Shown here: positions 5,786-25,927 of the stretch, piece by piece
How positions within the stretch are numbered: position 1 is the first letter of the stretch
Layout: each line of letters starts with the position of its first letter
Origin: Gemmatimonadota bacterium
GTDB taxonomy: Bacteria; Gemmatimonadota; Gemmatimonadetes; Gemmatimonadales; Gemmatimonadaceae
Assembly (NCBI GenBank): GCA_031372565.1
Contig: JANMLN010000007.1
Span: forward strand, 1 to 25,927
Direction: 5' to 3'
Length of the DNA stretch: 25,927 bases
The notes under the pieces: model-generated
What the model saw: the letters and a program-made list of their open reading frames with translations, nothing else
Database searches by the model: none
Told to the model about the DNA's origin: nothing
Program-made: the position numbers and the translations under genes

Positions 5786-5812
5786 TACAATGCAAATGAG
5801 AACCATTCTCAA
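5786..5812 (+). promoter_or_regulatory. -10 box (TACAAT) overlapped and followed by a Fur-box-like operator
   Basis: TACAAT at 5786-5791. TGAGAACcATTCTCA (5797-5811) matches 11/14 positions of the 7-1-7 Fur consensus TGATAATnATTATCA and is a perfect TGAGAA-N3-TTCTCA palindrome. It is an AT-rich patch at the 5' end of an iron permease gene. Confidence 0.75.
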
Positions 5813-8042
5813 TGTGACGACGTCCGCTGAGCGCCCCGCCATCGGGGCCCGCTCGCTGACGCGCTTTGTGGCCGCAGCGGTCCTTCTGTTTACGTCGGCT
5901 TCGGCGCAGACAGCAGCGGCTCAGGACCTTCCCGGCAAGCGACTCGCCGGCATCGTCGCGGTTGCCATCGATGAGTACGGCAAGGGCGTCGACCAGCGCG
6001 GTCGTCTCACCTCGAGCACCGAGTACGAAGAAGCCGTCTCCTTTCTGGTCGACGCGCGCGAAGTCGCAGGGCGCCTGACCGGCGGACACACCGCGCTCGT
6101 GCGCGCGCTCGTGGACACCCTGTCCGCTGCCGTTCGCGCCAAGGTGCCGCCGACCGCGCTCGAGATGATCCACCAGCGGCTTGTTGCCGCCCTGGGGAGC
6201 GATGCCGCGCTCGACATGCCGACCCGCCGCGTTGACGTCGCGCACGGGCAGGCGCTCTTCACCACCAACTGCGCCTCCTGCCACGGCGCGATGGCCGACG
6301 GCAACGGTCCCGCCGCCAAGGCGCTCCTCACGCCACCGCCCGCGCTCGTCGGTGTGGCCATGCGCGACAAGGCGCCGGCCACCCTGTACCGCGTGGTGAG
6401 TGTGGGCGTAGCGGGCACGCCGATGGCCGGCTGGGCATCGTCGCTCTCGCCGGATGACCGCTGGGACATTGTCCACTACCTGAACTCGTTGCGCACCAAT
6501 GGCGCCGAGGTCGCGCGCGGCGACTCGATCTGGCGTGCGCAGCACGTAGCGGTCGCCGGTCGCTCGAACAGTGCGTCGGTGCTGCCTCCCGAATTCTCCC
6601 GCTTCGCGTACACCGCCGAGAAGAGCGACGTGCAGTTGGCGCTCGCGATCAAGGATGCGGGGGCGGCAACCGGCACGGTGGCGCCGATGGCCGACGCCGA
6701 CGTGAACGCGGTGGTCGCCTACGTGCGCGCGCTTCCCGGACGCGATGCCGCCGTGCTCGCTGCCGCTCCGTCGGTCAAGGCCAAGGGCTCGACCGCAGGG
6801 CAGGCTGCCGAGGCCGCCGCTCGCTCGGTGCTCGCACTCATGGATGAAGCGCTGGCCGCCGCCAAGGCTGGACGGTCAGCCGATGCGGGCGACAAGGCGT
6901 TCGACGCCTACCTGGCCTTCGAGCCGCTCGAGACGCGTGCCCGCGCACAGGAGCCGGGCAAGGTCAGCGCGATGGAAGCGTCGTTCGCCGCGTTCAAGGC
7001 GAGCGTGAAGCAGGGGAATGTGGCGGGGGCCGCTGCGGCGCGTGACTCGATCGCGCTCGCGCTGCCGCACATGGTCGAGCTCGCACAGCCGAGCGGTGAT
7101 TTCTGGGAGCTGTTTTTGCAGAGCTTCCTGATCATCCTGCACGAAGGGTTCGAGGCCATTCTGGTGATCGGCGCGATCATCACCTTCCTGGTCAAGACCG
7201 GCCACAAGGAGCACGTGCGCTCGGTGTGGCAGGGCGTGGTTGCCGCGCTCGTCGCCAGCTTCGCCATGGCCGTCGTGCTCGCCACCGTGCTCTCGAGCAT
7301 TCCGGCGAGCCGCGAGATCGTCGAAGGGGTCACGATGCTCATCGCGGTCGTCGTGCTCTTCTCGGTCAGCTACTGGCTCATCAGCAAGGTCGAAGCGGCC
7401 AAGTGGCAGCAGTTCATCCGCGAGATGGTCAGCTCGGCGCTCACCAAGGGCGGCGGCACTGCGCTCGCGTTCACGGCCTTCCTCGCGGTCTTCCGCGAAG
7501 GGGCGGAAACGGCGCTCTTCTATCAGGCGCTGTTCCAGCAGCCGGGCGCGGTTGCACTCCCGCTCACGCTGGGCCTGGGGGTTGGCTTCGCCGCCCTCGC
7601 GGTCATCTTCGTGGCCTTCCACCGCTTCGGCGTGAAGATCCCGATGCGGCCGTTCTTCATCGGCACGAGCGGCATGCTCTACCTCATGGCCTTCATCTTC
7701 ATGGGCAAGGGGATCCGCGAGCTGCAGGAAGGGAACGCGCTCTCGCTTACGCTGCTGCCGGGATGGCCCACGGTCGATGCGCTGGGCATCTTCCCGAGCC
7801 GCGAAGGGCTGCTGGCGCAGGGGCTGCTGGTTGCGCTGCTCGCGTTCGCACTCTGGCGCTCGTGGATGCAATCCAGGGCGAATGAGGCCGAGCGCGTCGC
7901 GGCAGGTGATGACGTGCCGCAGCATGTGCACTCGGACCTGGAAGGGCGCGTGGCTGAACTCACCGCCAAGGCCAAGCTGCTCGAAGAGCGCCTCAAGAGC
8001 CTTGAGGGCGAACTACAGGACGAGAAAGCGCGGAAGTCGTAG
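5790..8042 (+). CDS. Cytochrome c / FTR1-family iron permease (PbrT/EfeU-like)
   Basis: Signal-like N-terminus, heme motif CASCH, GTPM, and a C-terminal multi-TM FTR1 domain with HEGFE and REGAE. The true start may be 5796 or GTG 5814. Confidence 0.9.
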   Translation: MQMRTILNVTTSAERPAIGARSLTRFVAAAVLLFTSASAQTAAAQDLPGKRLAGIVAVAIDEYGKGVDQRGRLTSSTEYEEAVSFLVDAREVAGRLTGGHTALVRALVDTLSAAVRAKVPPTALEMIHQRLVAALGSDAALDMPTRRVDVAHGQALFTTNCASCHGAMADGNGPAAKALLTPPPALVGVAMRDKAPATLYRVVSVGVAGTPMAGWASSLSPDDRWDIVHYLNSLRTNGAEVARGDSIWRAQHVAVAGRSNSASVLPPEFSRFAYTAEKSDVQLALAIKDAGAATGTVAPMADADVNAVVAYVRALPGRDAAVLAAAPSVKAKGSTAGQAAEAAARSVLALMDEALAAAKAGRSADAGDKAFDAYLAFEPLETRARAQEPGKVSAMEASFAAFKASVKQGNVAGAAAARDSIALALPHMVELAQPSGDFWELFLQSFLIILHEGFEAILVIGAIITFLVKTGHKEHVRSVWQGVVAALVASFAMAVVLATVLSSIPASREIVEGVTMLIAVVVLFSVSYWLISKVEAAKWQQFIREMVSSALTKGGGTALAFTAFLAVFREGAETALFYQALFQQPGAVALPLTLGLGVGFAALAVIFVAFHRFGVKIPMRPFFIGTSGMLYLMAFIFMGKGIRELQEGNALSLTLLPGWPTVDALGIFPSREGLLAQGLLVALLAFALWRSWMQSRANEAERVAAGDDVPQHVHSDLEGRVAELTAKAKLLEERLKSLEGELQDEKARKS

Positions 8043-9038: not shown

Positions 9039-9881
9039 CTAGTACGCCGGCGTGTCATCCCCCGCGAGCACGGTATCGGCGAACCGCGCTGCACGGAGCT
9101 GCCGCGGGTCCGGCGTTGGCGCCGAGAACAGGTAGTCCCCGTGATCGACGTCGAAGCGGTCCGCGATGATGGTGCTCACAACATCCTGCGGCACGGCGTC
9201 ATCACGATACGGCTTGGCGCCGAAGCGGCCGAGCGCACCGCCGGGGGAGTCCTTCCAGAAGAAGAGGAGTGACTGCACGAAGTCACCCACTGGATACGCC
9301 CACTTGAGGACGTTGTCGCGCTTGGAGCCGAGCACCGAGATGCGATTGGACCAGTCGGAGGCGGTGCGATAGGTGTCGGGGTCGCTCACGCTCCAGTCGT
9401 CCACGGCAGGGGCCATGACGCACACTTCGCGGATGCTGAACTTGGAGCGGTTCAGCGCATCGATGGCGCCGAAGACCACACGCGCGCCGAGCGAGTGGGA
9501 GACGAACGAGAGAGTGGTGCCAGAGCGGAGGACGCGATCCAGGTACGCGGTGAGCGCCTGGGCGGTGTCGTCGGCGTCGTTGCCTTCGAGTGGATAGCTC
9601 AAGAAGCTGAGCGGCCCAAGATTCACGTCGCCGGGCCAGAGCACGGCAACGACCGGCCCTGCGGGCAGTTGGCGGGTGAGGGCCGCGCAGAAGTCGCCGA
9701 GTGACTGCCGGCCGGCGGGGCGCGTGACGTTGAAGCCGTGCACGGCAATGGTGACGTGCTCGGCGATGAGGAGCTGGTCCTCGGCGGCCGTCGTGGAGAG
9801 GGTGCCGTCGCGATCGTAAGCGATGCCGTGGGTGACGGGACCACCGGCGTCGGCGTCGCGGAAGTCGAGGAAGAGGATCAC
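9039..9881 (-). CDS. Alpha/beta hydrolase (DUF900-like)
   Basis: VHGFNV, WPG, nucleophile elbow SHSLG, MAPAVD, D..L, C-terminal HGDY. Confidence 0.85.
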   Translation of the reverse strand: MILFLDFRDADAGGPVTHGIAYDRDGTLSTTAAEDQLLIAEHVTIAVHGFNVTRPAGRQSLGDFCAALTRQLPAGPVVAVLWPGDVNLGPLSFLSYPLEGNDADDTAQALTAYLDRVLRSGTTLSFVSHSLGARVVFGAIDALNRSKFSIREVCVMAPAVDDWSVSDPDTYRTASDWSNRISVLGSKRDNVLKWAYPVGDFVQSLLFFWKDSPGGALGRFGAKPYRDDAVPQDVVSTIIADRFDVDHGDYLFSAPTPDPRQLRAARFADTVLAGDDTPAY

Positions 9882-10525
9882 GCGCGCGCCTTGAGCGCTC
9901 GCGCCGCACTGTTCAGCCCCGACGCCAGATCCTTGGCGATGGGCGCGAAGGGCACAGCGGCGACGCCGATGATGAGGGCCCAGGACCAGTGGGGCTTGGG
10001 CTCATCCATGGCGAGGAAGGCACCGAGGGCCATCGCGAGCGAGGCGAACATGGCGAAGGTGCGTGCGGTGCCCGCGAAGTGGACCTTCGCGATGAGGAGG
10101 GCGGCGTCGATGCGCGCATCGGCGGCGAGCTCATAGCGGGCGAGGATGGCGCGCTCGGCGTCGGTGACGGGCTGCGCGGCGTCGCGCTTCTCGAGCACGG
10201 CGCGAAGTGCGGGGCCGTTGATGGTGCCGAGGAAGGCAGCGACGCGCTCGGCGTTGCTTGGGGTGAGGCCGACGCGGGCGCCCTGACGGAGCATGCGCGT
10301 GAGGTCGTCGTCGGAGCCCCGATAGCGATCCTCGATGGTCTCGCGCGCGGAGGGTCCGTGCGCGGCTTCGAGGGTGAGTGTGAGGGCGCCCAAGCGTGCC
10401 CAGAAGGTGGGGAAGCCCGCGAGTCCGACGGGTCGGGTCCACTTGAGGGCCTCGACGATCCCGAAGGCGGCGGTGCCGAGCGCGCCGGTGGCGAGAGTGA
10501 GGGTGGAGAGGTCGGGGGAGGGCAT
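9878..10525 (-). CDS. Hypothetical membrane protein (N-terminal hydrophobic segment and two C-terminal TM helices)
   Basis: ATG 10525 (MPSPDLSTLTLATGALGTAAFGIVEALK), hydrophobic C-terminus ending AVPFAPIAKDLAS; GTGA overlap with the hydrolase. Confidence 0.75.
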   Translation of the reverse strand: MPSPDLSTLTLATGALGTAAFGIVEALKWTRPVGLAGFPTFWARLGALTLTLEAAHGPSARETIEDRYRGSDDDLTRMLRQGARVGLTPSNAERVAAFLGTINGPALRAVLEKRDAAQPVTDAERAILARYELAADARIDAALLIAKVHFAGTARTFAMFASLAMALGAFLAMDEPKPHWSWALIIGVAAVPFAPIAKDLASGLNSAARALKARA

Positions 10526-10794
10526 GGGGGGCGGGGTGGGGGGGGTGCGGTGGTTCAAGGGTTGTGAGACGACGAGAGGTTTTGCAGAGACCGAACATAC
10601 CGACGAAGCGTGAGATAGCGTGAAGCGCCCACGGCTCGGCGACGTAGACGCCGCTCTCGCCGTCCACTTCAAAAGCTCGCGTCGCGCCCGCATCGGCCGT
10701 GCGTGGCGCACTTGGGACGATCATCGAAGGGCGTTCGAGGGCACCTGGGAGACGCCGCAGAGTGCGCGGCGAGCGCTGGTGCAGCTCGCCTGAG

Positions 10795-10985
10795 CACCCT
10801 ATTCTTCATGCAGCTGTAGGTGCTCTGGCAACTGGGAAAGCTCCAACGCGAGTCCAGTTGGGTATCCCGCGCGATGCTGCGCGAGGAGGCTCGAGGCCAG
10901 CCGATTCGGCTGAGCACCTCCGGGTGTGGGACGATGTCGCCACGCTCGCACGGGGAAGGTCGCGTACCCCCTCTGCACCTACAGC
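10795..10985 (+). ncRNA. Structured 173-nt element, copy 1 (core 10813-10985) with a conserved upstream -10-like box
   Basis: Terminal IR GCTGTAGGTGC/GCACCTACAGC, several internal hairpins, TATTCT at 10800-10805. A homologous copy lies 2089 bp downstream with structure-preserving changes. The repeat is certain; the RNA call is inferred. Confidence 0.65.
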
Positions 10986-10987
10986 GC

Positions 10988-11089
10988 CCGCCGCGCCCGC
11001 TGGCGGAGCTCGAGCAGGATATCCGGGCGATCGAAGGGGATATCGTGCGGATGCTGTCGGAGGTGACGGGTGGAAGCGTCTCGTCGTGA
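10988..11089 (+). pseudogene. hsdM: 3' stub of a type I R-M methyltransferase gene
   Basis: PPRPLAELEQDIRAIEGDIVRMLSEVTG* resembles the C-terminal helix of one HsdM subfamily (PPRPL.EI..DI...E.EI..ML.EV); nothing homologous upstream. Confidence 0.75.
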
Positions 11090-11092
11090 CGG

Positions 11093-11188
11093 CCAAGTGT
11101 CGGCACATGGCCGGAAGTGCCGACATTTGGCGTCCAGAAGTGTTACAATATGTCGGGGACTATGCATAACTACCGACGTTACGTAACA
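11093..11188 (+). promoter_or_regulatory. abiE promoter with two tandem inverted-repeat operators
   Basis: TGTCGG-N16-CCGACA (11098-11125, within a 13/14-bp IR at 11093-11130) and TGTCGG-N16-CCGACG (11151-11178, with outer arms TGTTAC/GTAACA). TACAAT at 11144-11149. Confidence 0.75.
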
Positions 11189-11196
11189 TCCCTCAA

Positions 11197-11808
11197 ATGA
11201 CACCACAGCCGACTCACGCACAGCTGAAGGCGCTTCGCGCGATTCGCCGACAGGGACTGGCGCGACCGCGCGAGCTCGCCCACCACGGCATCAACCGCGT
11301 CGAGCTTTCGCGCCTCGTCGACGCTGGCCTCGTCGAACGCGTTGCCCGGGGCGTGTACGTTGCCGCCGATCACGAATTCTCCGCCGATCTATCCGCCGCG
11401 ATTGTCGCGACCCGCGTGCCGTCGGCGGTCATCTGTCTGCTGACAGCGCTGCGTCTGCACGAGTTGACGACGCAACAACCCCACCAGGTGTGGATCGCCT
11501 TGGCCGAAAAGGCACGCCGGCCGCGGCTTGACTATCCGCGGCTGCGCGTCGCGCGGTTCTCTGGCCCTGCGCTCACCGAGGGGATCGAGACACGCCGCAT
11601 CGAAGGGGTGCCGGTTCGGCTGTATTCGGCCGCCAAGACCGTCGCTGACTGCTTCAAGTACCGGGACAAGATCGGCATCGACGTCGCCGTGGAGGCGCTG
11701 CACGACTATACGCGCAAGCACCGCGGCGGGGCGACCGCGCTCGCGCACTTTGCCCGCATCTGCCGCGTGACGCGCGTGATGCAACCCTATCTGGATTCGC
11801 TCCCGTGA
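11197..11808 (+). CDS. abiEi: Type IV TA antitoxin, AbiEi family
   Basis: N-terminal wHTH (L..G.VERVARGVY), ICLLTAL..HELTTQ.P, YSAAKTVADCFKYR; coupled to the downstream NTase. Confidence 0.92.
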   Translation: MTPQPTHAQLKALRAIRRQGLARPRELAHHGINRVELSRLVDAGLVERVARGVYVAADHEFSADLSAAIVATRVPSAVICLLTALRLHELTTQQPHQVWIALAEKARRPRLDYPRLRVARFSGPALTEGIETRRIEGVPVRLYSAAKTVADCFKYRDKIGIDVAVEALHDYTRKHRGGATALAHFARICRVTRVMQPYLDSLP

Positions 11809-12716
11809 GCGGCACGCCAAACGTCGCTGCGTCGGTGATGGCGCGACTGCTGAAGCGCGCAAAGTCGCGCGGCGAGGACTATCAGCTGCTCGTCACGGCG
11901 TATGCCTTCGAGCGGCTCCTCTATCGACTCGGGCAGTCGCCGGTGCGCGATCGCTTCGTGCTGAAGGGCGCCATGCTGTTGCGCCTCTGGTCGGAGCAAC
12001 CTTATCGCACCACGCGGGATCTCGATCTGCTGCGCCGTGGCGATGCGACGTTCGACGCCATCCGCAGTGACCTGCAGGTGATCCTCGCGACGCGCGTCCC
12101 GGACGATGGCATCACATTCGATACGGCCAGTCTGGTCCTCGAACACATCCGGGCCGACGAAGAGTACGCAGGGACGCGCGTTATCCTGTCGGCGCGGTGC
12201 GGAAAGGCGCGGCTGTCGCTGCAGGTCGACCTGGGCGTCGGTGACGCGACGTGGCCAGAACCGTTGGTGCGGCGATATCGGGCGCTGTTGGACGCGCCGG
12301 CCCCGGAGGTATTCGCCTACGAACGCGAGACGGTCGTCGCGGAGAAGCTCGAAGCGCTGGTGGTCCACGGCGATCGCAACAGCCGCATCAAGGACTTCTT
12401 CGACCTGCATATGCTCGCCACAACGTTCGCGTTCGATCGGCGCGAACTCGGCGAGTCGGTGCGACGCACATTCGCGCGCCGGCAAACGCCGATCCCCGAC
12501 GTGGCGCCGATCGGACTGACGCCAGCGTACTGGGAGAATCCATCGCGTCCGATGCAGGTGCGGGCGTTTGCCAGACGCGCGGGCCTCGCGGCCACTGCCG
12601 AGACGGGACGCGCACTCAACGGCGTGCTGTCGGCGTTCCTGCTGCCGGTGCTCGACGACGTTGCGGCAGGAGCGCCGCAGGCGGGAACGTGGGCACCGGG
12701 AGGGCCGTGGCGGTGA
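11805..12716 (+). CDS. abiEii: Type IV TA toxin, AbiEii/AbiGii nucleotidyltransferase
   Basis: FVLKGAMLL, R.TRDLDL, AEKLEA, NSRIKDFFDL motifs; GTGA overlap with abiEi. Confidence 0.93.
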   Translation: MSGTPNVAASVMARLLKRAKSRGEDYQLLVTAYAFERLLYRLGQSPVRDRFVLKGAMLLRLWSEQPYRTTRDLDLLRRGDATFDAIRSDLQVILATRVPDDGITFDTASLVLEHIRADEEYAGTRVILSARCGKARLSLQVDLGVGDATWPEPLVRRYRALLDAPAPEVFAYERETVVAEKLEALVVHGDRNSRIKDFFDLHMLATTFAFDRRELGESVRRTFARRQTPIPDVAPIGLTPAYWENPSRPMQVRAFARRAGLAATAETGRALNGVLSAFLLPVLDDVAAGAPQAGTWAPGGPWR

Positions 12717-12868
12717 ACGTGCGAGCATACACGCCGTACGCGGCGTACAAGGATTCGGGCGTGGAGTGGCTGGGAGAGATTCCGGTGGGGTCGGAGATGG
12801 CAAGGAGGTGGCGGGTCGGAAAGGCACGTCGTGGCGGCACGCCCTCGAAAGACGAGCCTGCGTACTGG
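12713..12868 (+). pseudogene. hsdS: 5' stub of a type I R-M specificity subunit gene
   Basis: GTG 12713 overlaps the abiEii stop. YAAYKDSGVEWLGEIP...GGTPSK...YW is the classic HsdS N-terminus. Homology stops after YW and the frame closes at 12901. Confidence 0.85.
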
Positions 12869-12883
12869 TGCGCACAGACAAGC

Positions 12884-13074
12884 CACCCTATCCTTCATTG
12901 AGCTGTAGGTGCTCTGGCAACTGGGAAAGCTCCAACGCGTGTCCAGTTGGGTAGTCGGCGTCCTTGTGGCGCCGGGTTCTCGAGGCCGGCTGAGATAACG
13001 CCGAGCACCTCCGGGCGTGGCGAGGGTGCCACGTTCGCACGGGGAAGGTCGCGTACCCCCTCTGCACCTACAGC
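12884..13074 (+). ncRNA. Structured 173-nt element, copy 2 (core 12902-13074)
   Basis: Same 11-bp terminal IR and same length as copy 1, TATCCT at 12889-12894, three hairpins with different sequence. Confidence 0.65.
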
Positions 13075-13236
13075 ATCCCCCATACTTGCAAACTGTACCT
13101 CCGATTCCGTAAGAACACCTGAAGTCGGTGTCTACGGAACCCGGCGCAGCCCACCCCAAGCAGGAAGTCGGGTCTGACAGTCTCGCCGCCGAGCCAACCT
13201 CGCGCGCGTGGTGCGCGCTCGTAGATTCTTCCCCAG

Positions 13237-16200
13237 ATGACCACGCATTTCCCGGCGGAGATCCCGGCTCGGCTGCGCGAGTTGGCGGAGAAGTGGCAGG
13301 ACCAGCAGGCCAACGAGCGCGCGTCGCTGCAGACGTACGTGCTCGAACTATGCGCGGCGCTCGGCGTCGAGCCTCCCTCTCCGCCCACGCCGAACTACCA
13401 GTTCGAGCGCGACGTGCAGGTTACGGAGCGCGACGGGTCGCTCACCACCAACTTCATCGACCTCTGGAAGGCGGACCACTTCGCCTTGGAGGGAAAGGCC
13501 CTGCTTGAGGCCGGCGCCGAGACGCGCGACCGCAGGCTCCGGCGGGCGTTCGGCCAGGTTCGCACCTACGTCGCGCATGTTTCGGGTACGCCTCCTCCGT
13601 TTTTGGTTGTGCTGGATGTCGCCCGAACACTCATCGTGTGGGACCGATGGAGTGGACGCTATGGTGACTATCAGGCCGGGCGGGTCATCCCGCTGCCCAA
13701 ATTGCACGAACGCCCCGACGACATCGCCCTCCTCCGCGACATGTGGATGGCGCCGGCGGAGCGCGACCCCCGCGCCAAGGCTCAGGCCGTGACCCAGGAC
13801 CTGGCCGGCCAGTTGGCGCGCTTCGCTGCGGCGCTGGAAGATCGCGGTCACGACGGCGAGAAGGTCGCGCGGTTCGTCATGCGTTGCGTCTTCTGCTGCT
13901 TTGCGGAAGACGTTGGGCTGTTGCGCGCGAACCTGTTTCGGCAGACGCTCGAAGCCGCCGCGCGGAAGGGCGACCCCAGCGAGTTCGCCGACGCGCTCAC
14001 GACGCTCTGGCGCACGATGGACACCGGCGGCCGCTTCGGCGCCGAGATCCTGAACCGGTTCAACGGGCACTTCTTCAAGACCGTCGAGGCGCTGCCGCTC
14101 GACAAGACCGACATGGCCTTGCTCATCGAGGCGTCCAAGGCTGACTGGTCCCAGGTGGAGCCCACCATCTTCGGCACCCTGCTCGTGCGGGCGCTCGACC
14201 CCGAGGAGCGCCACCGGTTGGGCGCCGAGTACACGCCGCGCACCTACATCGAGCGGCTCGTCCGTCCCACGGTGGAGGAGCCGATCCGCGAGCGGTGGAC
14301 GGCTGTGCAGGCCGATGTGCTGCAACTCGAGGAAGCCGCCGGCGTTCCTGATGGGAAGAAGCCGACCGCCGCACAGAAGAAGCAGCTCGACGCCGCCATG
14401 GCGCGTCTCCGCGACTTCCACGCGTGGATGCGCGGCCTCCACTTCCTCGATCCCGCCTGTGGCAGCGGCAACTTCCTGTACGTCACGATGGACATCGTGA
14501 AGCACATCGAGCTCGAAGTGCTCCGCGAGATCGCTCGGCTCTCCGGCGGGCAGGAGTCGGCTGTGCTCGACGAGGTGCACCCGCGCCAGTTCCACGGGAT
14601 CGAGATCAAGCCGTGGGCGCGCGAGATCGCCGAGCTGACGCTCTGGATCGGGTACCACCAGTGGTGGCGGGAGACGCATGGTGGGCGGACGCCACCGGAT
14701 CCGATTCTCGAGGACACGGGGACGATCGAGTGTCGGGATGCGGTGCTGGCGTGGGACAGCACGCGGCATGATCCGAGTCGCGATCGGCCGGATCCAACGC
14801 CGCGGATCAAGCATCCGGTGACGGGGGAGTTGGTGCCGGATCCGGCGGCGAGGATCCCTTACTTCGAGCGTGTCAACCCGCGTGTCGCAAGTTGGCCGAC
14901 GGCGGACTTTGTGATCGGGAATCCACCATACCTAGGTCAATCCCGCCAGCGAGCGGTGCTCGATGACGGGTACGTCGACGCACTGCGCAATGCGTATCCC
15001 GACCTTCCCGACACGGCGGACTTCGTTCTGTACTGGTGGCAGCGAGCGGCTCTGTTGGTGGCGGCGGGCGAACTCGGAGCGGCAGGACTGATCACCACCA
15101 ACTCGATCGCTCAAGGCCAGAATCGACTCGCGATTGAGCTAGCCATCGCGCGCGGTGCCAGCATCGTGTGGGTATGCGCCAATCACCCGTGGGTCGGTGA
15201 TGGCGACGCGGCGGCTGTGCGCGTTGCAATGACGGTCGTGACTCGCGGCGCTTCGCGAGCCGCACTCGTACACGTCGACGATGACGGACTGGTTGTATCG
15301 CAGCAGTACGTGGCCCGGATCCACTCCGATCTGACCGGCTTTGCTGACGTCGCGACTGCGAGCAGGCTTGTTCTTTGGGCCAATGCTGACTTGGCCCATG
15401 ACGGCGTCAAGCTACACGGTCGCGGCTTCCAGATATCGCCAGTCGAGGCGGCGGATCTCCTCAAGTCGGATGGCTCGCACGCTGCGGTGCTGCGCCCATT
15501 GCGCAACGGGCGCGATATTGCCGCACGCCCGCGAGGGGTTTACGCGATCGACTTTGGCCTAATGACCGAGTCCGAGGCTCGTGCGTATCCGGTCCTTTTC
15601 GATGTCGTGCGCGATCGCGTGCTTCCCACCCGCTTGGCAAATCGGAGCGAGAGTTACGCTCGCTACTGGTGGCGCTTTGGTAGGCCTCGGCCCGAGTGGC
15701 GCGTGGCCTCAGCTGGCCTTGCGCGCTTTATCGCGACAGTGGACACGTCTCCGCACCGCTATTTCGTATTCCTAGACGACACCGTTCTCGCGGACGATGG
15801 GCTGGTCCAGGTCGCGTCGGATGACGCCTACGTGCTTGGCGTCCTATCCTCGTTGATTCACCGTACATGGTCGATTGCGTCAGGTGGACGATTGGGAGTC
15901 GGCGACGATCCTCGATGGAACAAGTCGACGTGCTTTGACCCGTATCCGTTCCCGGCCGCGGGGTTGAAGCTGACCGCGTCAATTCGCGACGTGGCAACGC
16001 GCCTCGACGCGCACCGCACCGCCGCCCTCGCCCGCGACGAACGCGTCACCATGACCGGCATGTACAACGTCGTCGAGAAGCTCCGCTCCGGCGCCGCGCT
16101 CACACCTAAGGAGCGCAGCATCCACGAGATCGCCGCGTGCGGCGTCCTCAAGGACCTGCACGACGAACTCGACGTACTCGTCGCACAGGCCTACGGCTGG

Positions 16201-16605
16201 CCGTGGCCGATGCAGCGTGAGGAGATCCTCGAACGATTGGTCGCCCTTCACGACGAGCGCGTCGCCGAGGAGCAGCGCGGACTCGTGCGCTGGCTCCGCC
16301 CCGACTACCAGATCCCCCGATTCGGGAAAGACTTGGCCGCCGCGCCCGCCGAGTTCGACCTCCCCGCCTTCGTCCCTGCGTCGCCCACCCTGCAACCAGC
16401 CAAGTGGGCGCCCACCGCGGTGGAGCAACTGACCACGATCACCGCCCTGTTGGCCGAGCGCCCACGCACCTCCGCTGATCTGGTCGCGAGCTTCAGTGGG
16501 GCTCGGCCTCAGTTGATCGAGCGCCACCTCGAGACGCTCGCCCTGATGGGCGAGGTCACGCGCACACCGACGGGGCAGTTCGCGCTGGCCCAACGCGTCG
16601 GCTGA
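13237..16605 (+). CDS. MmeI-like type IIG/IIL restriction endonuclease-N6-adenine methyltransferase
   Basis: 1122 aa. N-terminal PD-(D/E)xK-like IDLWK...LEGK, FAEDVGLL, FNG.FF, IFGTL, GAEYTP, motif I DPACGSGNFL, motif IV GNPPY, and a TRD with VLSS.IH..W and CFDPYPFP. Confidence 0.92.
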   Translation: MTTHFPAEIPARLRELAEKWQDQQANERASLQTYVLELCAALGVEPPSPPTPNYQFERDVQVTERDGSLTTNFIDLWKADHFALEGKALLEAGAETRDRRLRRAFGQVRTYVAHVSGTPPPFLVVLDVARTLIVWDRWSGRYGDYQAGRVIPLPKLHERPDDIALLRDMWMAPAERDPRAKAQAVTQDLAGQLARFAAALEDRGHDGEKVARFVMRCVFCCFAEDVGLLRANLFRQTLEAAARKGDPSEFADALTTLWRTMDTGGRFGAEILNRFNGHFFKTVEALPLDKTDMALLIEASKADWSQVEPTIFGTLLVRALDPEERHRLGAEYTPRTYIERLVRPTVEEPIRERWTAVQADVLQLEEAAGVPDGKKPTAAQKKQLDAAMARLRDFHAWMRGLHFLDPACGSGNFLYVTMDIVKHIELEVLREIARLSGGQESAVLDEVHPRQFHGIEIKPWAREIAELTLWIGYHQWWRETHGGRTPPDPILEDTGTIECRDAVLAWDSTRHDPSRDRPDPTPRIKHPVTGELVPDPAARIPYFERVNPRVASWPTADFVIGNPPYLGQSRQRAVLDDGYVDALRNAYPDLPDTADFVLYWWQRAALLVAAGELGAAGLITTNSIAQGQNRLAIELAIARGASIVWVCANHPWVGDGDAAAVRVAMTVVTRGASRAALVHVDDDGLVVSQQYVARIHSDLTGFADVATASRLVLWANADLAHDGVKLHGRGFQISPVEAADLLKSDGSHAAVLRPLRNGRDIAARPRGVYAIDFGLMTESEARAYPVLFDVVRDRVLPTRLANRSESYARYWWRFGRPRPEWRVASAGLARFIATVDTSPHRYFVFLDDTVLADDGLVQVASDDAYVLGVLSSLIHRTWSIASGGRLGVGDDPRWNKSTCFDPYPFPAAGLKLTASIRDVATRLDAHRTAALARDERVTMTGMYNVVEKLRSGAALTPKERSIHEIAACGVLKDLHDELDVLVAQAYGWPWPMQREEILERLVALHDERVAEEQRGLVRWLRPDYQIPRFGKDLAAAPAEFDLPAFVPASPTLQPAKWAPTAVEQLTTITALLAERPRTSADLVASFSGARPQLIERHLETLALMGEVTRTPTGQFALAQRVG

Positions 16606-16616
16606 TCCGCGACAGC

Positions 16617-17063
16617 CTACCCCATCACCCACAGCTCAACTCGTCCGCGCGGCCGCACCTTCGACTTCAGTTCGCTTGGCGTTGGAGGGTAGAAGCGCGC
16701 AATCCACGGCCCCGTATCGTTCCGCGCAACGAAGCGCTCGATCAACTCGCGCGCGTCCGCCACGTGCGCAGCAAGCACCGGGAACGGGAGCTTGCTCACC
16801 AGCACAATGAGCCGCAGCGCCGAGGCCTCGACCGCTGCAACTTCGTTGGGCCGCCGTCGGATCTGCCGATCGTGCGTCAGCGCCACCCATCCGCGCTTAG
16901 CGACTTGAGGAATCCACTCCTCGTCTCGCGTGGTCGGGCCGAAATGGTCGTCATGTGATTCCACGGCGAACCCGGCCTCCCGAAGGGTGACGGGGAAGCC
17001 CCGGCCGAGATTTCGGTCGGAAAAGAAGGTCGTCGGTGGCGCGTCCCTACGCCGCTTGCTCGT
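16617..17063 (-). CDS. PIN-like toxin, VapC45/Rv2019-like (probable non-canonical start)
   Basis: In-frame FFSDRNLG...LREAG...HDDHF...DEEWI...GWVALTHDRQIR. The domain's first motif lies upstream of the first GTG (16964); candidate ACG start at 17063. Confidence 0.8.
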   Translation of the reverse strand, partial: TSKRRRDAPPTTFFSDRNLGRGFPVTLREAGFAVESHDDHFGPTTRDEEWIPQVAKRGWVALTHDRQIRRRPNEVAAVEASALRLIVLVSKLPFPVLAAHVADARELIERFVARNDTGPWIARFYPPTPSELKSKVRPRGRVELWVMG

Positions 17064-17742
17064 AGAACACAGCCTCTTTGACGTCCGCCGTCGTGATTCC
17101 GTAGTCGGCTGCCACGTCGTCCGCTGACTCGCCGGCGTCGATCCGCTCCACCAGAATGCGCGTGGCGATGCCTGCGCTGGCCAGAATCGGACGGCCGAAT
17201 CCGATGGCGGGATCGATCACGATCGGCCGCGCATCGGGACGCTCGTCCATAACGGCGAACGGAAACAGACGGTGAGGCAGATCGTTCGCGTCCCACTCCA
17301 CGCGGCGCAGATACGCTTCCAGCGCCGACCGCATAGCTAACTGCCCGGACTTGGTCAGGTTGATCAGCTTGCCGTAGCGCTCGATGAACAGCTCACCCGC
17401 GCTGGCCTTCAACTCCACGCTGAGCAGCAACCGCTCGATGTTGAGCTCCGACTCGGCGTAGTGAATCGCCTTCCGGATTTCGGGCAGCGCCATCCCGTGC
17501 GTCGTCCGCAGTGACCGCAGCACGTGCGCCTCGACCACATTGTTGAACGAGAGCACGTGCGACCGCGTGTCAGCTGCGCGGATCAGCGGCTGGCTGCGCC
17601 GAGTCCCCGCCGCTGACGAGGAGGCTCGACCCACAACCCAGGCGCGCAGCGTCGCTGACGCCACCCGCACGTACCGCGCCGCCTCAGCGAGTGGATACGC
17701 CGGGCGGTCGGGTGCCGTCAGTGTCGAGCGGGAAGGCTGCAT
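17047..17742 (-). CDS. DUF433-domain antitoxin, VapB45/Rv2018-like
   Basis: N-terminal HTH (Y..AEAARY..V...TLR.W), LSF..VVEAHVL, IDPAIGFGRP...GI.T, GES...VA.DYG. ATG 17742 preferred. Confidence 0.88.
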   Translation of the reverse strand: MQPSRSTLTAPDRPAYPLAEAARYVRVASATLRAWVVGRASSSAAGTRRSQPLIRAADTRSHVLSFNNVVEAHVLRSLRTTHGMALPEIRKAIHYAESELNIERLLLSVELKASAGELFIERYGKLINLTKSGQLAMRSALEAYLRRVEWDANDLPHRLFPFAVMDERPDARPIVIDPAIGFGRPILASAGIATRILVERIDAGESADDVAADYGITTADVKEAVFYEQAA

Positions 17743-17963
17743 CGTTGGTGTGGTCGGTGGCTCGGAGCTGAATTCGGACCTATGTGTCAACGAGGTTGGA
17801 CTGCAACGTCGGATGCCGACGGAGTGAAGATGAAGAACCTATGGCAGAATCTCCAGTCTCGCGCAGCCGGGTGCGCCCGAGCCAGCCCATGCCGAGACGT
17901 CGTCTGGTGAGCCTGATCGTTTCAGCATCGCCCCGACGTGAAAGCCAGCCGGGGCAAAACCCC

Positions 17964-25514: not shown

Positions 25515-25609
25515 CAACCAGTCGCTGACCACGGCTTGACGGCCCAAAGCGCTAGCACGATTGCATACGGGCCGGGCGCGGTGAGCGTTGGGCCGCGCTT
25601 CCGGCCTTC

Positions 25610-25719
25610 ACGATCCCGGCCTCATGTCGCCCGTGACGGTGAGCGCGTTCGTGGCGACGGTCGATGAGATCACGCAGTTTCGCACCGCGCACGAGTTGGA
25701 GGCGTACCTCGGCGTGACG
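25610..25719 (+). pseudogene. Second IS110-family transposase fragment
   Basis: From 25624 the frame reads MSPVTVSAFVATVDEITQFRTAHELEAYLGVT, matching GP.TA.AF.A..D...RF.SA....AYLG..P; a degenerate TIP/PG lies just upstream. Confidence 0.72.
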
Positions 25720-25734
25720 CGAAAGCGCTCGACC

Positions 25735-25927
25735 TCAGAACTTCGGGTTGATCCCAGTCGCCACGTAGAGATCCCGCGTCCGGTACACGCGCCCCGCCCG
25801 CACCACGCGCTCGGTCTTCCGCAAATCCGTCACACGCTCGTACGGCTTCCCCAACACGATCGCGAGGTCCGCGATCTTGCCCACCGCGATCGAGCCGTAA
25901 TTGGCCGTGTCACCCATGACGCGCGCC
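25735..25927 (-). CDS. Amidohydrolase-family protein, C-terminal part (partial)
   Basis: ARVMG....GSIAVGKIADLAIV.G.P......L.....V...GRVY is the typical amidohydrolase C-terminus; runs off the window. Confidence 0.8.
   Translation of the reverse strand, partial: ARVMGDTANYGSIAVGKIADLAIVLGKPYERVTDLRKTERVVRAGRVYRTRDLYVATGINPKF

Follow-up and report, generated by a model that had tools for sequence, protein, structure and literature searches.

The described systems with which the locus analyzed here is compared are the insertion sequence IS621, the ssr9 module of ISPpu9, and expanded IS110 loci. IS621 has a CT core, and its promoter lies across this core. Once strands have been exchanged, the IS621 RNA remains bound to target positions 10-14 through its right-target guide; it then base-pairs with the CT core coming in from the donor, and donor positions 6-7 are contacted by the handshake bases (PMC11208160, PMC11208158). 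The ssr9 module of ISPpu9 in Pseudomonas putida is a small-RNA gene flanked by insertion-sequence end boxes; orphan copies lie away from transposase genes, and the module excises alone as a circle (PMC12288879). Expanded IS110 loci contain direct repeats of non-coding units, captured cargo, and half-matched canonical boundaries (bioRxiv 10.64898/2026.08.14.744561). Here we describe a repeated element of ~200 bp that is present in two copies in a 25,927-nt stretch of DNA of a Gemmatimonadota bacterium (contig JANMLN010000007.1, positions 1 to 25,927; the term "window" designates this whole stretch). Judging from three copies with four informative junctions, one of the copies being from another genome, we tentatively favor the view that the copies are non-autonomous mobile elements which insert site-specifically, to which we give slightly less than an even chance.

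Architecture of the repeated element

The cores of the two copies are located on the + strand at positions 10813-10985 (copy 1) and 12902-13074 (copy 2), in direct orientation and with a start-to-start distance of 2089 nt. Each core is 173 nt long and is composed of four constant blocks and three variable blocks, the latter folding as hairpins in each copy. Over the 113 nt of the constant blocks, copies 1 and 2 differ at a single position (A10851/T12940), and the variable blocks are identical at 13/25, 7/13-15, and 15/20-22 positions, respectively. Either of the 22-23-nt end blocks occurs exactly twice in the window, whereas no occurrence is expected from 100 shuffles. A terminal complement of 11 bp, GCTGTAGGTGC/GCACCTACAGC, is present in both cores, as is evident from sequence and alignment. 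A preceding interpretation that used only the letters of the window (the sequence-only reading) had already proposed the two 173-nt cores with conserved linkers and a single constant-block difference, the three rewritten hairpins that each still fold, and a -10-like box 7 nt upstream of both cores. All three proposals were confirmed.

Conservation reaches upstream of the cores, beyond the extent given by the sequence-only reading, as far as a GGTGC motif at 10778 (copy 1) and 12867 (copy 2). In the alignment of the three copies, this motif is followed by a non-conserved spacer and then by a conserved C(A/G)CCCTATyCTTCAT block. Copy 1 harbors the -10-like TATTCT (10800-10805) in its left end (10778-10812, + strand), and copy 2 the corresponding TATCCT (12889-12894) in its own (12867-12901, + strand). 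A -35-like TGGTGC (10777-10782) straddles the CT at the left junction of copy 1, and the spacing between the -35-like box and TATyCT, counted by eye, is 17 nt in all three copies. On the best reading, the element proper extends from GGTGC to GCAC and has a size of ~200 bp, corresponding to positions 10778-10978 and 12867-13067.

Two further features of the copies were noticed. A GTTGGGT heptamer, which fits the integron R' consensus, is present in a conserved hairpin of every copy (10857, 12946, and 10024 in the copy of the other genome, L015); it has no partner box and is taken as a coincidence. By eye, a 7-bp inverted repeat (GGCGAGC/GCTCGCC, 10768-10774 and 10785-10791) spans the left junction of copy 1 and pairs the left flank with the variable spacer of the element. 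This repeat is absent at copy 2 and L015.

A restriction-operon fragment with abiE between the two copies

The 1.9 kb between the two copies is, by homology, an internal piece of an hsdM-abiEi-abiEii-hsdS operon, with all parts on the + strand. It starts with an hsdM remnant (10988-11089; 102 nt) comprising the last 33 codons and the stop codon of a gene for a type I methylase subunit. Of the 33 residues, 27 agree with the very C-terminal end (residues 687-719) of a type I M protein of 719 aa, and 8 of 28 candidates matched at E ≤ 0.1, all eight with the same ending. The remnant is followed by abiEi (11197-11808; antitoxin and regulator; Pfam AbiEi_4, E = 7.4e-12; PADLOC AbiEi, E = 3e-78) and abiEii (11805-12716; nucleotidyltransferase toxin; Pfam AbiEii, E = 4.9e-38; PADLOC AbiEii, E = 5.9e-101). 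The piece ends with the first 52 codons of hsdS (12713-12868), whose GTG start overlaps the abiEii stop (GTGA). For this remnant, 434 of 454 candidates matched at E ≤ 0.01, with PF01420 in all 120 listed. Both remnants were recognized by homology searches and left unrecognized by Pfam and NCBIfam, and the window contains no other part of hsdM or hsdS.

The cuts in the operon lie no more than about 3 nt from the copies, one at the right end of copy 1 and the other at the left end of copy 2. Homology to hsdM begins at 10988, 3 nt past the end of the copy 1 core, and homology to hsdS ends at a conserved (Y/F)W motif (TGG, 12866-12868), where the conservation of copy 2 begins. The residue following this motif was never Cys in 108 instances, yet it is Cys in the window. 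An operon fragment cut at the element ends needs DNA ends that recombine, and neither ordinary gene duplication nor cis-regulation explains it. With the inner ends of both copies coinciding with breakpoints in hsdM and hsdS, a non-autonomous element, which the sequence-only reading had listed as one alternative, has become the best-supported explanation. The reading as a mobile element is further favored because no more than 1-3 of the 113 nt in the constant blocks vary between genomes otherwise lacking detectable DNA similarity, and because of the lower G+C content of the 10.7-17.9 kb region (0.63-0.69, compared to 0.71-0.73 in the flanks on either side; 68% for the window).

Just upstream of abiEi lies the sole sigma-70-like promoter that was called in the region (11120-11149). 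It is overlapped by an inverted repeat of 14 nt (11093-11106 and 11117-11130; 13/14 complementary, 10 nt apart), which is probably an operator for autoregulation by AbiEi.

Element junctions and a possible target site

In all three copies, CT precedes GGTGC and also follows GCAC, and ACAGC is found on the right. In this register, all copies read left flank-CT-GGTGC...GCAC-CT-ACAGC-right flank. The left-junction CT is located at 10776-10777 in copy 1, 12865-12866 in copy 2, and 9943-9944 in L015; that of copy 1 is a candidate crossover core or, alternatively, a candidate 2-bp duplication. The right junction of copy 1 (10975-10985, + strand) is composed of GCAC (10975-10978), CT (10979-10980), and ACAGC (10981-10985), and that of copy 2 (13064-13074, + strand) of GCAC (13064-13067), CT (13068-13069), and ACAGC (13070-13074). 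The first 11 nt of the core, as RNA GCUGU-AG-GUGC, are complementary to this top-strand GCAC-CT-ACAGC in all three copies. The same pairing can also be read as a simple terminal stem, and the segment is positioned at the predicted 5' end. The element termini GGTGC/GCACC are inverted repeats, and the junction of a circle formed from the element would read GCACC-T-GGTGC, which is palindromic.

The L015 copy borders directly on the stop codon, which is intact, of a MuF/SPP1 gp7-like phage head gene on the opposite strand. This gene is full length: its three closest homologs (98, 61, and 61% identity) likewise encode 441 aa and end with WGAL, and among the 31 homolog ends listed nine read GAL and eleven more G-x-L. 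The last codons of the gene, GCG CTG T(AG), are the complement of top-strand (CT)ACAGCGC, which means that the final 5 nt of the 11-bp stem (ACAGC), if not more, are native flank in L015. When the element and one CT are removed from L015, the phage gene with its stop codon stays intact. The sequence-only reading had described a perfect 11-bp closing stem. The complementarity as such is there in both window copies, but the last 5-7 nt of its 3' arm are native flank in L015, and the "stem" is probably in part a complementarity between element and flank rather than a fixed RNA helix.

In L015, the genes for the phage portal and the MuF-like head protein (10153-12224) stop at the element. To the left of the element (9560-9940), there are about 400 nt of AT-richer non-coding DNA that contain no phage genes according to PHROGs. 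With phage genes on one side only, the phage region is either truncated or ends at the element.

Folding and strand

Whole-element folds of the + strand had energies of -88.4 kcal/mol (z = -3.81 relative to shuffles) for copy 1 and -85.0 kcal/mol (z = -2.57) for copy 2, and the folds of the - strand were nearly as good (z = -3.95 and -3.46). Only hairpin 3 clearly favors the + strand (-16.2 versus -8.8, -16.4 versus -11.0, and -11.3 versus -9.6 kcal/mol in the three copies). Hairpin 2 is slightly more stable on the - strand, and in L015 the - strand folds better for hairpin 1 and for the whole element. The argument that stem mismatches reveal a + strand RNA is thus weaker than the sequence-only reading had it, and for the window copies the comparison with shuffles puts the - strand on an equal footing. 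Given the promoter-like boxes and the one hairpin, a structured RNA from the + strand is plausible.

In the minimum-energy and consensus folds, hairpins are enclosed either by the terminal stem or by an alternative stem of 8 bp, and two simple hairpins come after this part. When the flank was excluded from the fold, the 5' segment AGGUGCUC paired with GAGCACCU in the third constant block in all three copies, and therefore the terminal stem has an internal alternative partner.

A protein-coding function of the element was rejected, as copy 2 lacks the open frame seen in copy 1. In a test for a miscalled open reading frame (ORF), an open GC3-rich reverse frame of the element was searched against 1.84 billion representative proteins. 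The search gave two weak multi-stretch matches and did not recover the ORF of the window itself, meaning that the method had no power. A perfect complementarity of 11 nt was observed between the 3' arm of hairpin 1 of copy 2 (12969-12979) and the leader of the type IIG restriction-modification gene located downstream (13137-13147); it has no counterpart at copy 1 or L015 and may be a chance match. Guide-like matches of the variable hairpins to the flanks were inconsistent between the copies.

Distribution of the element

The cmscan check that had been suggested by the sequence-only reading gave no match to the element: with Rfam 15, the whole window had none at gathering thresholds, and the two matches obtained at E ≤ 10 for the region 10700-13200 were chance matches outside the element; whether Rfam 15 holds models of bridge RNAs is not established. 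No tRNA or tmRNA was found in the window or L015, and blastn of the element gave no match in 72,556 plasmid and 50,697 phage records. A genome scan, which demanded 21 exact bases and thus defines a lower bound of the distribution without making rarity a finding, led to 20 loci. Nineteen of them were chance matches both by blastn and by a covariance model, and the single true relative was L015, a contig of a metagenome-assembled genome of the Gemmatimonadetes. The L015 copy (9980-10156) has 177 nt and shares 82-85% identity with the window copies over about 190-230 nt; in the constant blocks, it differs from them at 2-3 of 113 positions.

The covariance model (R1), whose construction had also been suggested, could be built from the three copies, one of which is the further true copy in L015. 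It scores these copies at 182-198 bits (182.4 bits for copy 1 and 198.3 bits for copy 2), whereas the next best score in 342 kb was 17.4 bits. Apart from the element, the window and L015 share neither detectable DNA similarity nor synteny. The hairpins form a mosaic in which hairpin 1 of L015 resembles that of copy 1 and hairpin 2 that of copy 2, which fits an exchange between copies. We found no description of the element in the literature searched, which is weak evidence for its being unpublished; none of the terms Gemmatimonad, orphan, MITE (miniature inverted-repeat transposable element), non-autonomous, restriction, and AbiE was found in a preprint (bioRxiv 10.64898/2026.10.21.760802).

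Proposed mechanism and competing explanations

In the mechanism that we propose, the left end of the element would provide the promoter-like boxes, and nearly all of the remainder would give rise to a compact + strand RNA, in which three freely varying spacer hairpins are set in an invariant scaffold. A recombinase encoded elsewhere would use this RNA, or the folded element, to recognize the element ends and the CT-ACAGC target, and strand exchange would occur at CT. The arrangement in the window might have originated from two insertions into one type I restriction operon. Recombination between the copies would then have yielded a circle that contained a single copy along with the cargo and that integrated into a resident copy. 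The portable unit (copy, hsdM tail, abiEi, abiEii, hsdS head, copy) would now be located between a resident gene and the type IIG gene.

A number of observations weigh against this interpretation. At copy 1, ACAGC is not native hsdM. All eight HsdM homologs read FYRY(T/D)(P/A)PRPL, and with the usual codons native hsdM at the break would read CT-ACAC, which resembles the target; this expected native sequence, however, is 2 nt out of register. The junction of copy 1 thus favors ACAGC as a part of the element and L015 favors it as flank, so that an extra event must be assumed; either this holds, or ACAGC travels with the element and the match in L015 is microhomology. The native right side at the hsdS junction would not be ACAGC either, the 4-7-nt overlaps at the junctions could be microhomology resulting from illegitimate recombination, and the CT crossover is inferred from 2 nt only. 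With respect to the promoter-like boxes, which are weak, a sigma-70 scan made no call at them, and the same scan found no terminator after the element. Although the window copies fold better than shuffles, as expected from the proposal of a structured element, the L015 copy is indistinguishable from them (z = -1.48; 17 of 200 shuffles fold equally well). In the properly aligned helices, just two pairs show changes on both sides, and covariation statistics are impossible because only three copies in two genomes are known. Pfam scans of 34 ORFs of the window and 20 ORFs of L015 revealed no recombinase of any kind except for a relic of 38 residues in the window (see below). The earlier statement that no recombinase gene follows either copy consequently holds, and the linkage to IS110 recombinase genes that had been envisaged was found neither beside the window copies nor beside the L015 copy.

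Further points concern the resemblance to IS110 bridge RNAs, which was part of the sequence-only reading. The order of segments within the 11-mer at the 5' end agrees with that in IS621, whereas no adjacent recombinase gene and no left-target guide were found and the two-loop fold is not predicted. For the element, a multi-branch domain is predicted and not two stem-loops with large internal loops, and the guide-like 11-mer is located at the predicted 5' end, whereas that of IS621 is on the 3' side of an internal loop. For a left-target guide, a scan that was one base off register showed that none of the CU-anchored matches between a copy and its own left flank surpassed the matches to the flanks of the other copies. 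A check by eye in the right register found none, and there were no consistent k-mer matches either.

A more specific version of the proposal is doubtful: the element could be a recombinase-less RNA-guided module made of a promoter and one guide-and-scaffold RNA, which borrows an IS110-type or other recombinase, finds CT-ACAGC via its 5' end, and assembles portable defense cassettes, in this case abiE excised from a restriction operon. If this were true, the element would constitute a minimal RNA-guided architecture of DNA mobility that is new, and its scaffold would differ from those of known bridge RNAs. If the reading as a mobile element held, the ~200-bp unit, essentially one RNA gene with defined ends, would rank with the smallest mobile elements that act site-specifically. 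It would also show how such units cut defense genes from operons and move them, and would offer a compact guide scaffold, with a fold unrelated to that of the IS621 bridge RNA, for pairing with its recombinase.

The repeats might instead be stand-alone genes for a trans-acting small RNA with its own promoter, borne by the host or by mobile elements and marking island borders where mobile DNA lands or breaks; the duplication would then stem from incoming DNA with its own copy that recombined with a resident copy. The promoter-like boxes at fixed spacing in all three copies, the extremely conserved scaffold next to spacer hairpins that are free to change, the location of all three copies at the border of defense or phage DNA, and the lack of a recombinase gene nearby would suit such a gene. 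We nevertheless consider it unlikely. Integration into RNA genes normally duplicates a 3' segment only, but the fragment here, cut inside two genes, has a whole unit with its promoter on either side. Moreover, the CT and ACAGC common to the copies, together with the native gene end in L015, suggest defined DNA ends rather than a gene that happens to be close by, the window and L015 are not syntenic, and Rfam has no match. If the element were only a small-RNA gene at island borders, it would still be an unannotated, strongly conserved structured RNA from a poorly studied phylum, albeit of modest interest. Movement without any RNA function is assumed if the element is a single-strand DNA hairpin element of the IS200/IS605 or repetitive extragenic palindromic (REP) type, mobilized by an HUH transposase encoded elsewhere and, viewed from the - strand, inserted just 3' of GCTGTAG. 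IS200/IS605-derived palindrome-associated elements and REP doublets are short, recombinase-less, and hairpin-rich, insert without duplicating the target, and are flanked on one side by a fixed short motif. The element agrees with them in a target duplication of at most 2 nt, a fixed motif on one flank in all three copies, and good folding of both strands, and we take the GTAG/CTAC motif at its ends to be a feature of REP sequences. It differs in that its two ends lack matching subterminal hairpins (by inspection) and in its multi-helix scaffold with promoter-like boxes, whose fixed spacing would stay unexplained. Furthermore, no Y1 transposase, TnpB, or IscB domains were found in the scanned ORFs of the window or L015, and Rfam, which holds IS605- and IscB-associated RNA models, gave nothing at E ≤ 10. 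An element of this type is less likely than the reading proposed above, and we rate it as quite unlikely.

Likewise less likely is an ordinary cut-and-paste MITE whose terminal inverted repeats (GGTGC/GCACC) would be 5-7 bp long and whose target duplication would be the 2-bp CT. It would have formed a composite transposon around abiE, and its internal structure and promoter would be incidental or regulatory. The inverted termini, the CT on both sides, and the two direct copies bracketing captured DNA are what such an element would show, but the dinucleotide and the 5-nt right flank are identical in all copies (three only), indicating a strong target choice. The terminal repeats are also very short, no DDE transposase is encoded nearby, and the interior scaffold, differing at 1-3 of 113 nt, is conserved far more strictly than is usual for MITE interiors. 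Taken together, this makes a MITE improbable. An integron-like attC site or a cis-acting leader or riboswitch for defense genes is very improbable. The consensus boxes of attC sites are RYYYAAC for R'' and GTTRRRY for R'. Conserved ends with a variable but still folding middle and a toxin-antitoxin unit flanked by two sites are reminiscent of attC, yet the element is longer and branched, and the "cassette" is a fragment with truncated genes. No R''/R' pair is present at the ends, the one internal GTTGGGT being unaccompanied by RYYYAAC, and no integrase was found in the scanned window ORFs; with boxes and integrase absent, an integron attC site was excluded. A leader or riboswitch would fit the position of both window copies in front of + strand defense genes. 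It was excluded as well, since the downstream gene is inconsistent, namely abiEi, the type IIG gene, and, in L015, a convergent phage gene.

Genomic neighborhood

To the left of copy 1, Pfam and PADLOC scans identified lgt, a DUF900 gene, and an unassigned gene, all on the - strand. At 5790-8042 on the + strand, a 750-aa protein with cytochrome c domains and an FTR1 iron permease domain is encoded. The neighbor downstream of copy 2 is the type IIG (MmeI-like) restriction-modification gene (13237-16605, + strand; 1122 aa), which has five Pfam MmeI/Eco57I domains and a PADLOC match to REase_MTase_IIG with 1256.6 bits; its membership in the element is not established. Directly past it, a DUF433/HTH_66 gene and a PIN_10 gene following it (16617-17790, - strand), neither with a PADLOC match, look like a second toxin-antitoxin-like pair. 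Past this pair, there are a kinase gene and housekeeping-type genes.

The recombinase relic mentioned above is a 38-residue IS110-family Transposase_20 fragment (Pfam, E = 4e-5) at about 25624-25737 within 25588-25926 on the + strand, at a distance of 12.5 kb from copy 2. By eye, it adjoins the apparent 3' end of a convergent gene, and tblastn against the plasmid collection gave no match. Its presence in the window indicates that IS110-family elements have visited this genome.

Comparison with known systems

A retron is not indicated by the genes of the window, as no reverse transcriptase domain was detected among the scanned window ORFs. With the ssr9 module, the element would have in common the modular, non-autonomous mobility of a small-RNA unit, and ssr9 is a precedent for modules that lack a recombinase. 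The ssr9 module is reported to be dispensable for transposition and lies beside ISPpu9 copies in the same genome, whereas no parent element is known here. Expanded IS110 loci and the locus described here both have non-coding direct repeats, captured cargo, and half-matched boundaries. In the former, the transposase is inside, whereas here none is encoded in the 10.8 kb that precede copy 1 or the 12.8 kb that follow copy 2.

In their logic, the IS110 bridge RNAs are closest to the element, which is a resemblance; membership is not shown. In contrast to them, there is no gene for a DEDD/Transposase_20 recombinase in or near the element, and, in contrast to IS621, the element ends directly after the predicted RNA. 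The likeness to IS621 comprises the size of the predicted RNA (173 nt here and 177 nt in IS621) and its position at the left end just past the promoter, with the -35 region at the core, the -35-like box straddling CT in our case. It further includes a CT at both junctions, here a match of only 2 nt, a sequence-specific target, and a segment order in the predicted RNA (GCUGU-AG-GUGC) that would correspond to right-target guide, core, and handshake guide.

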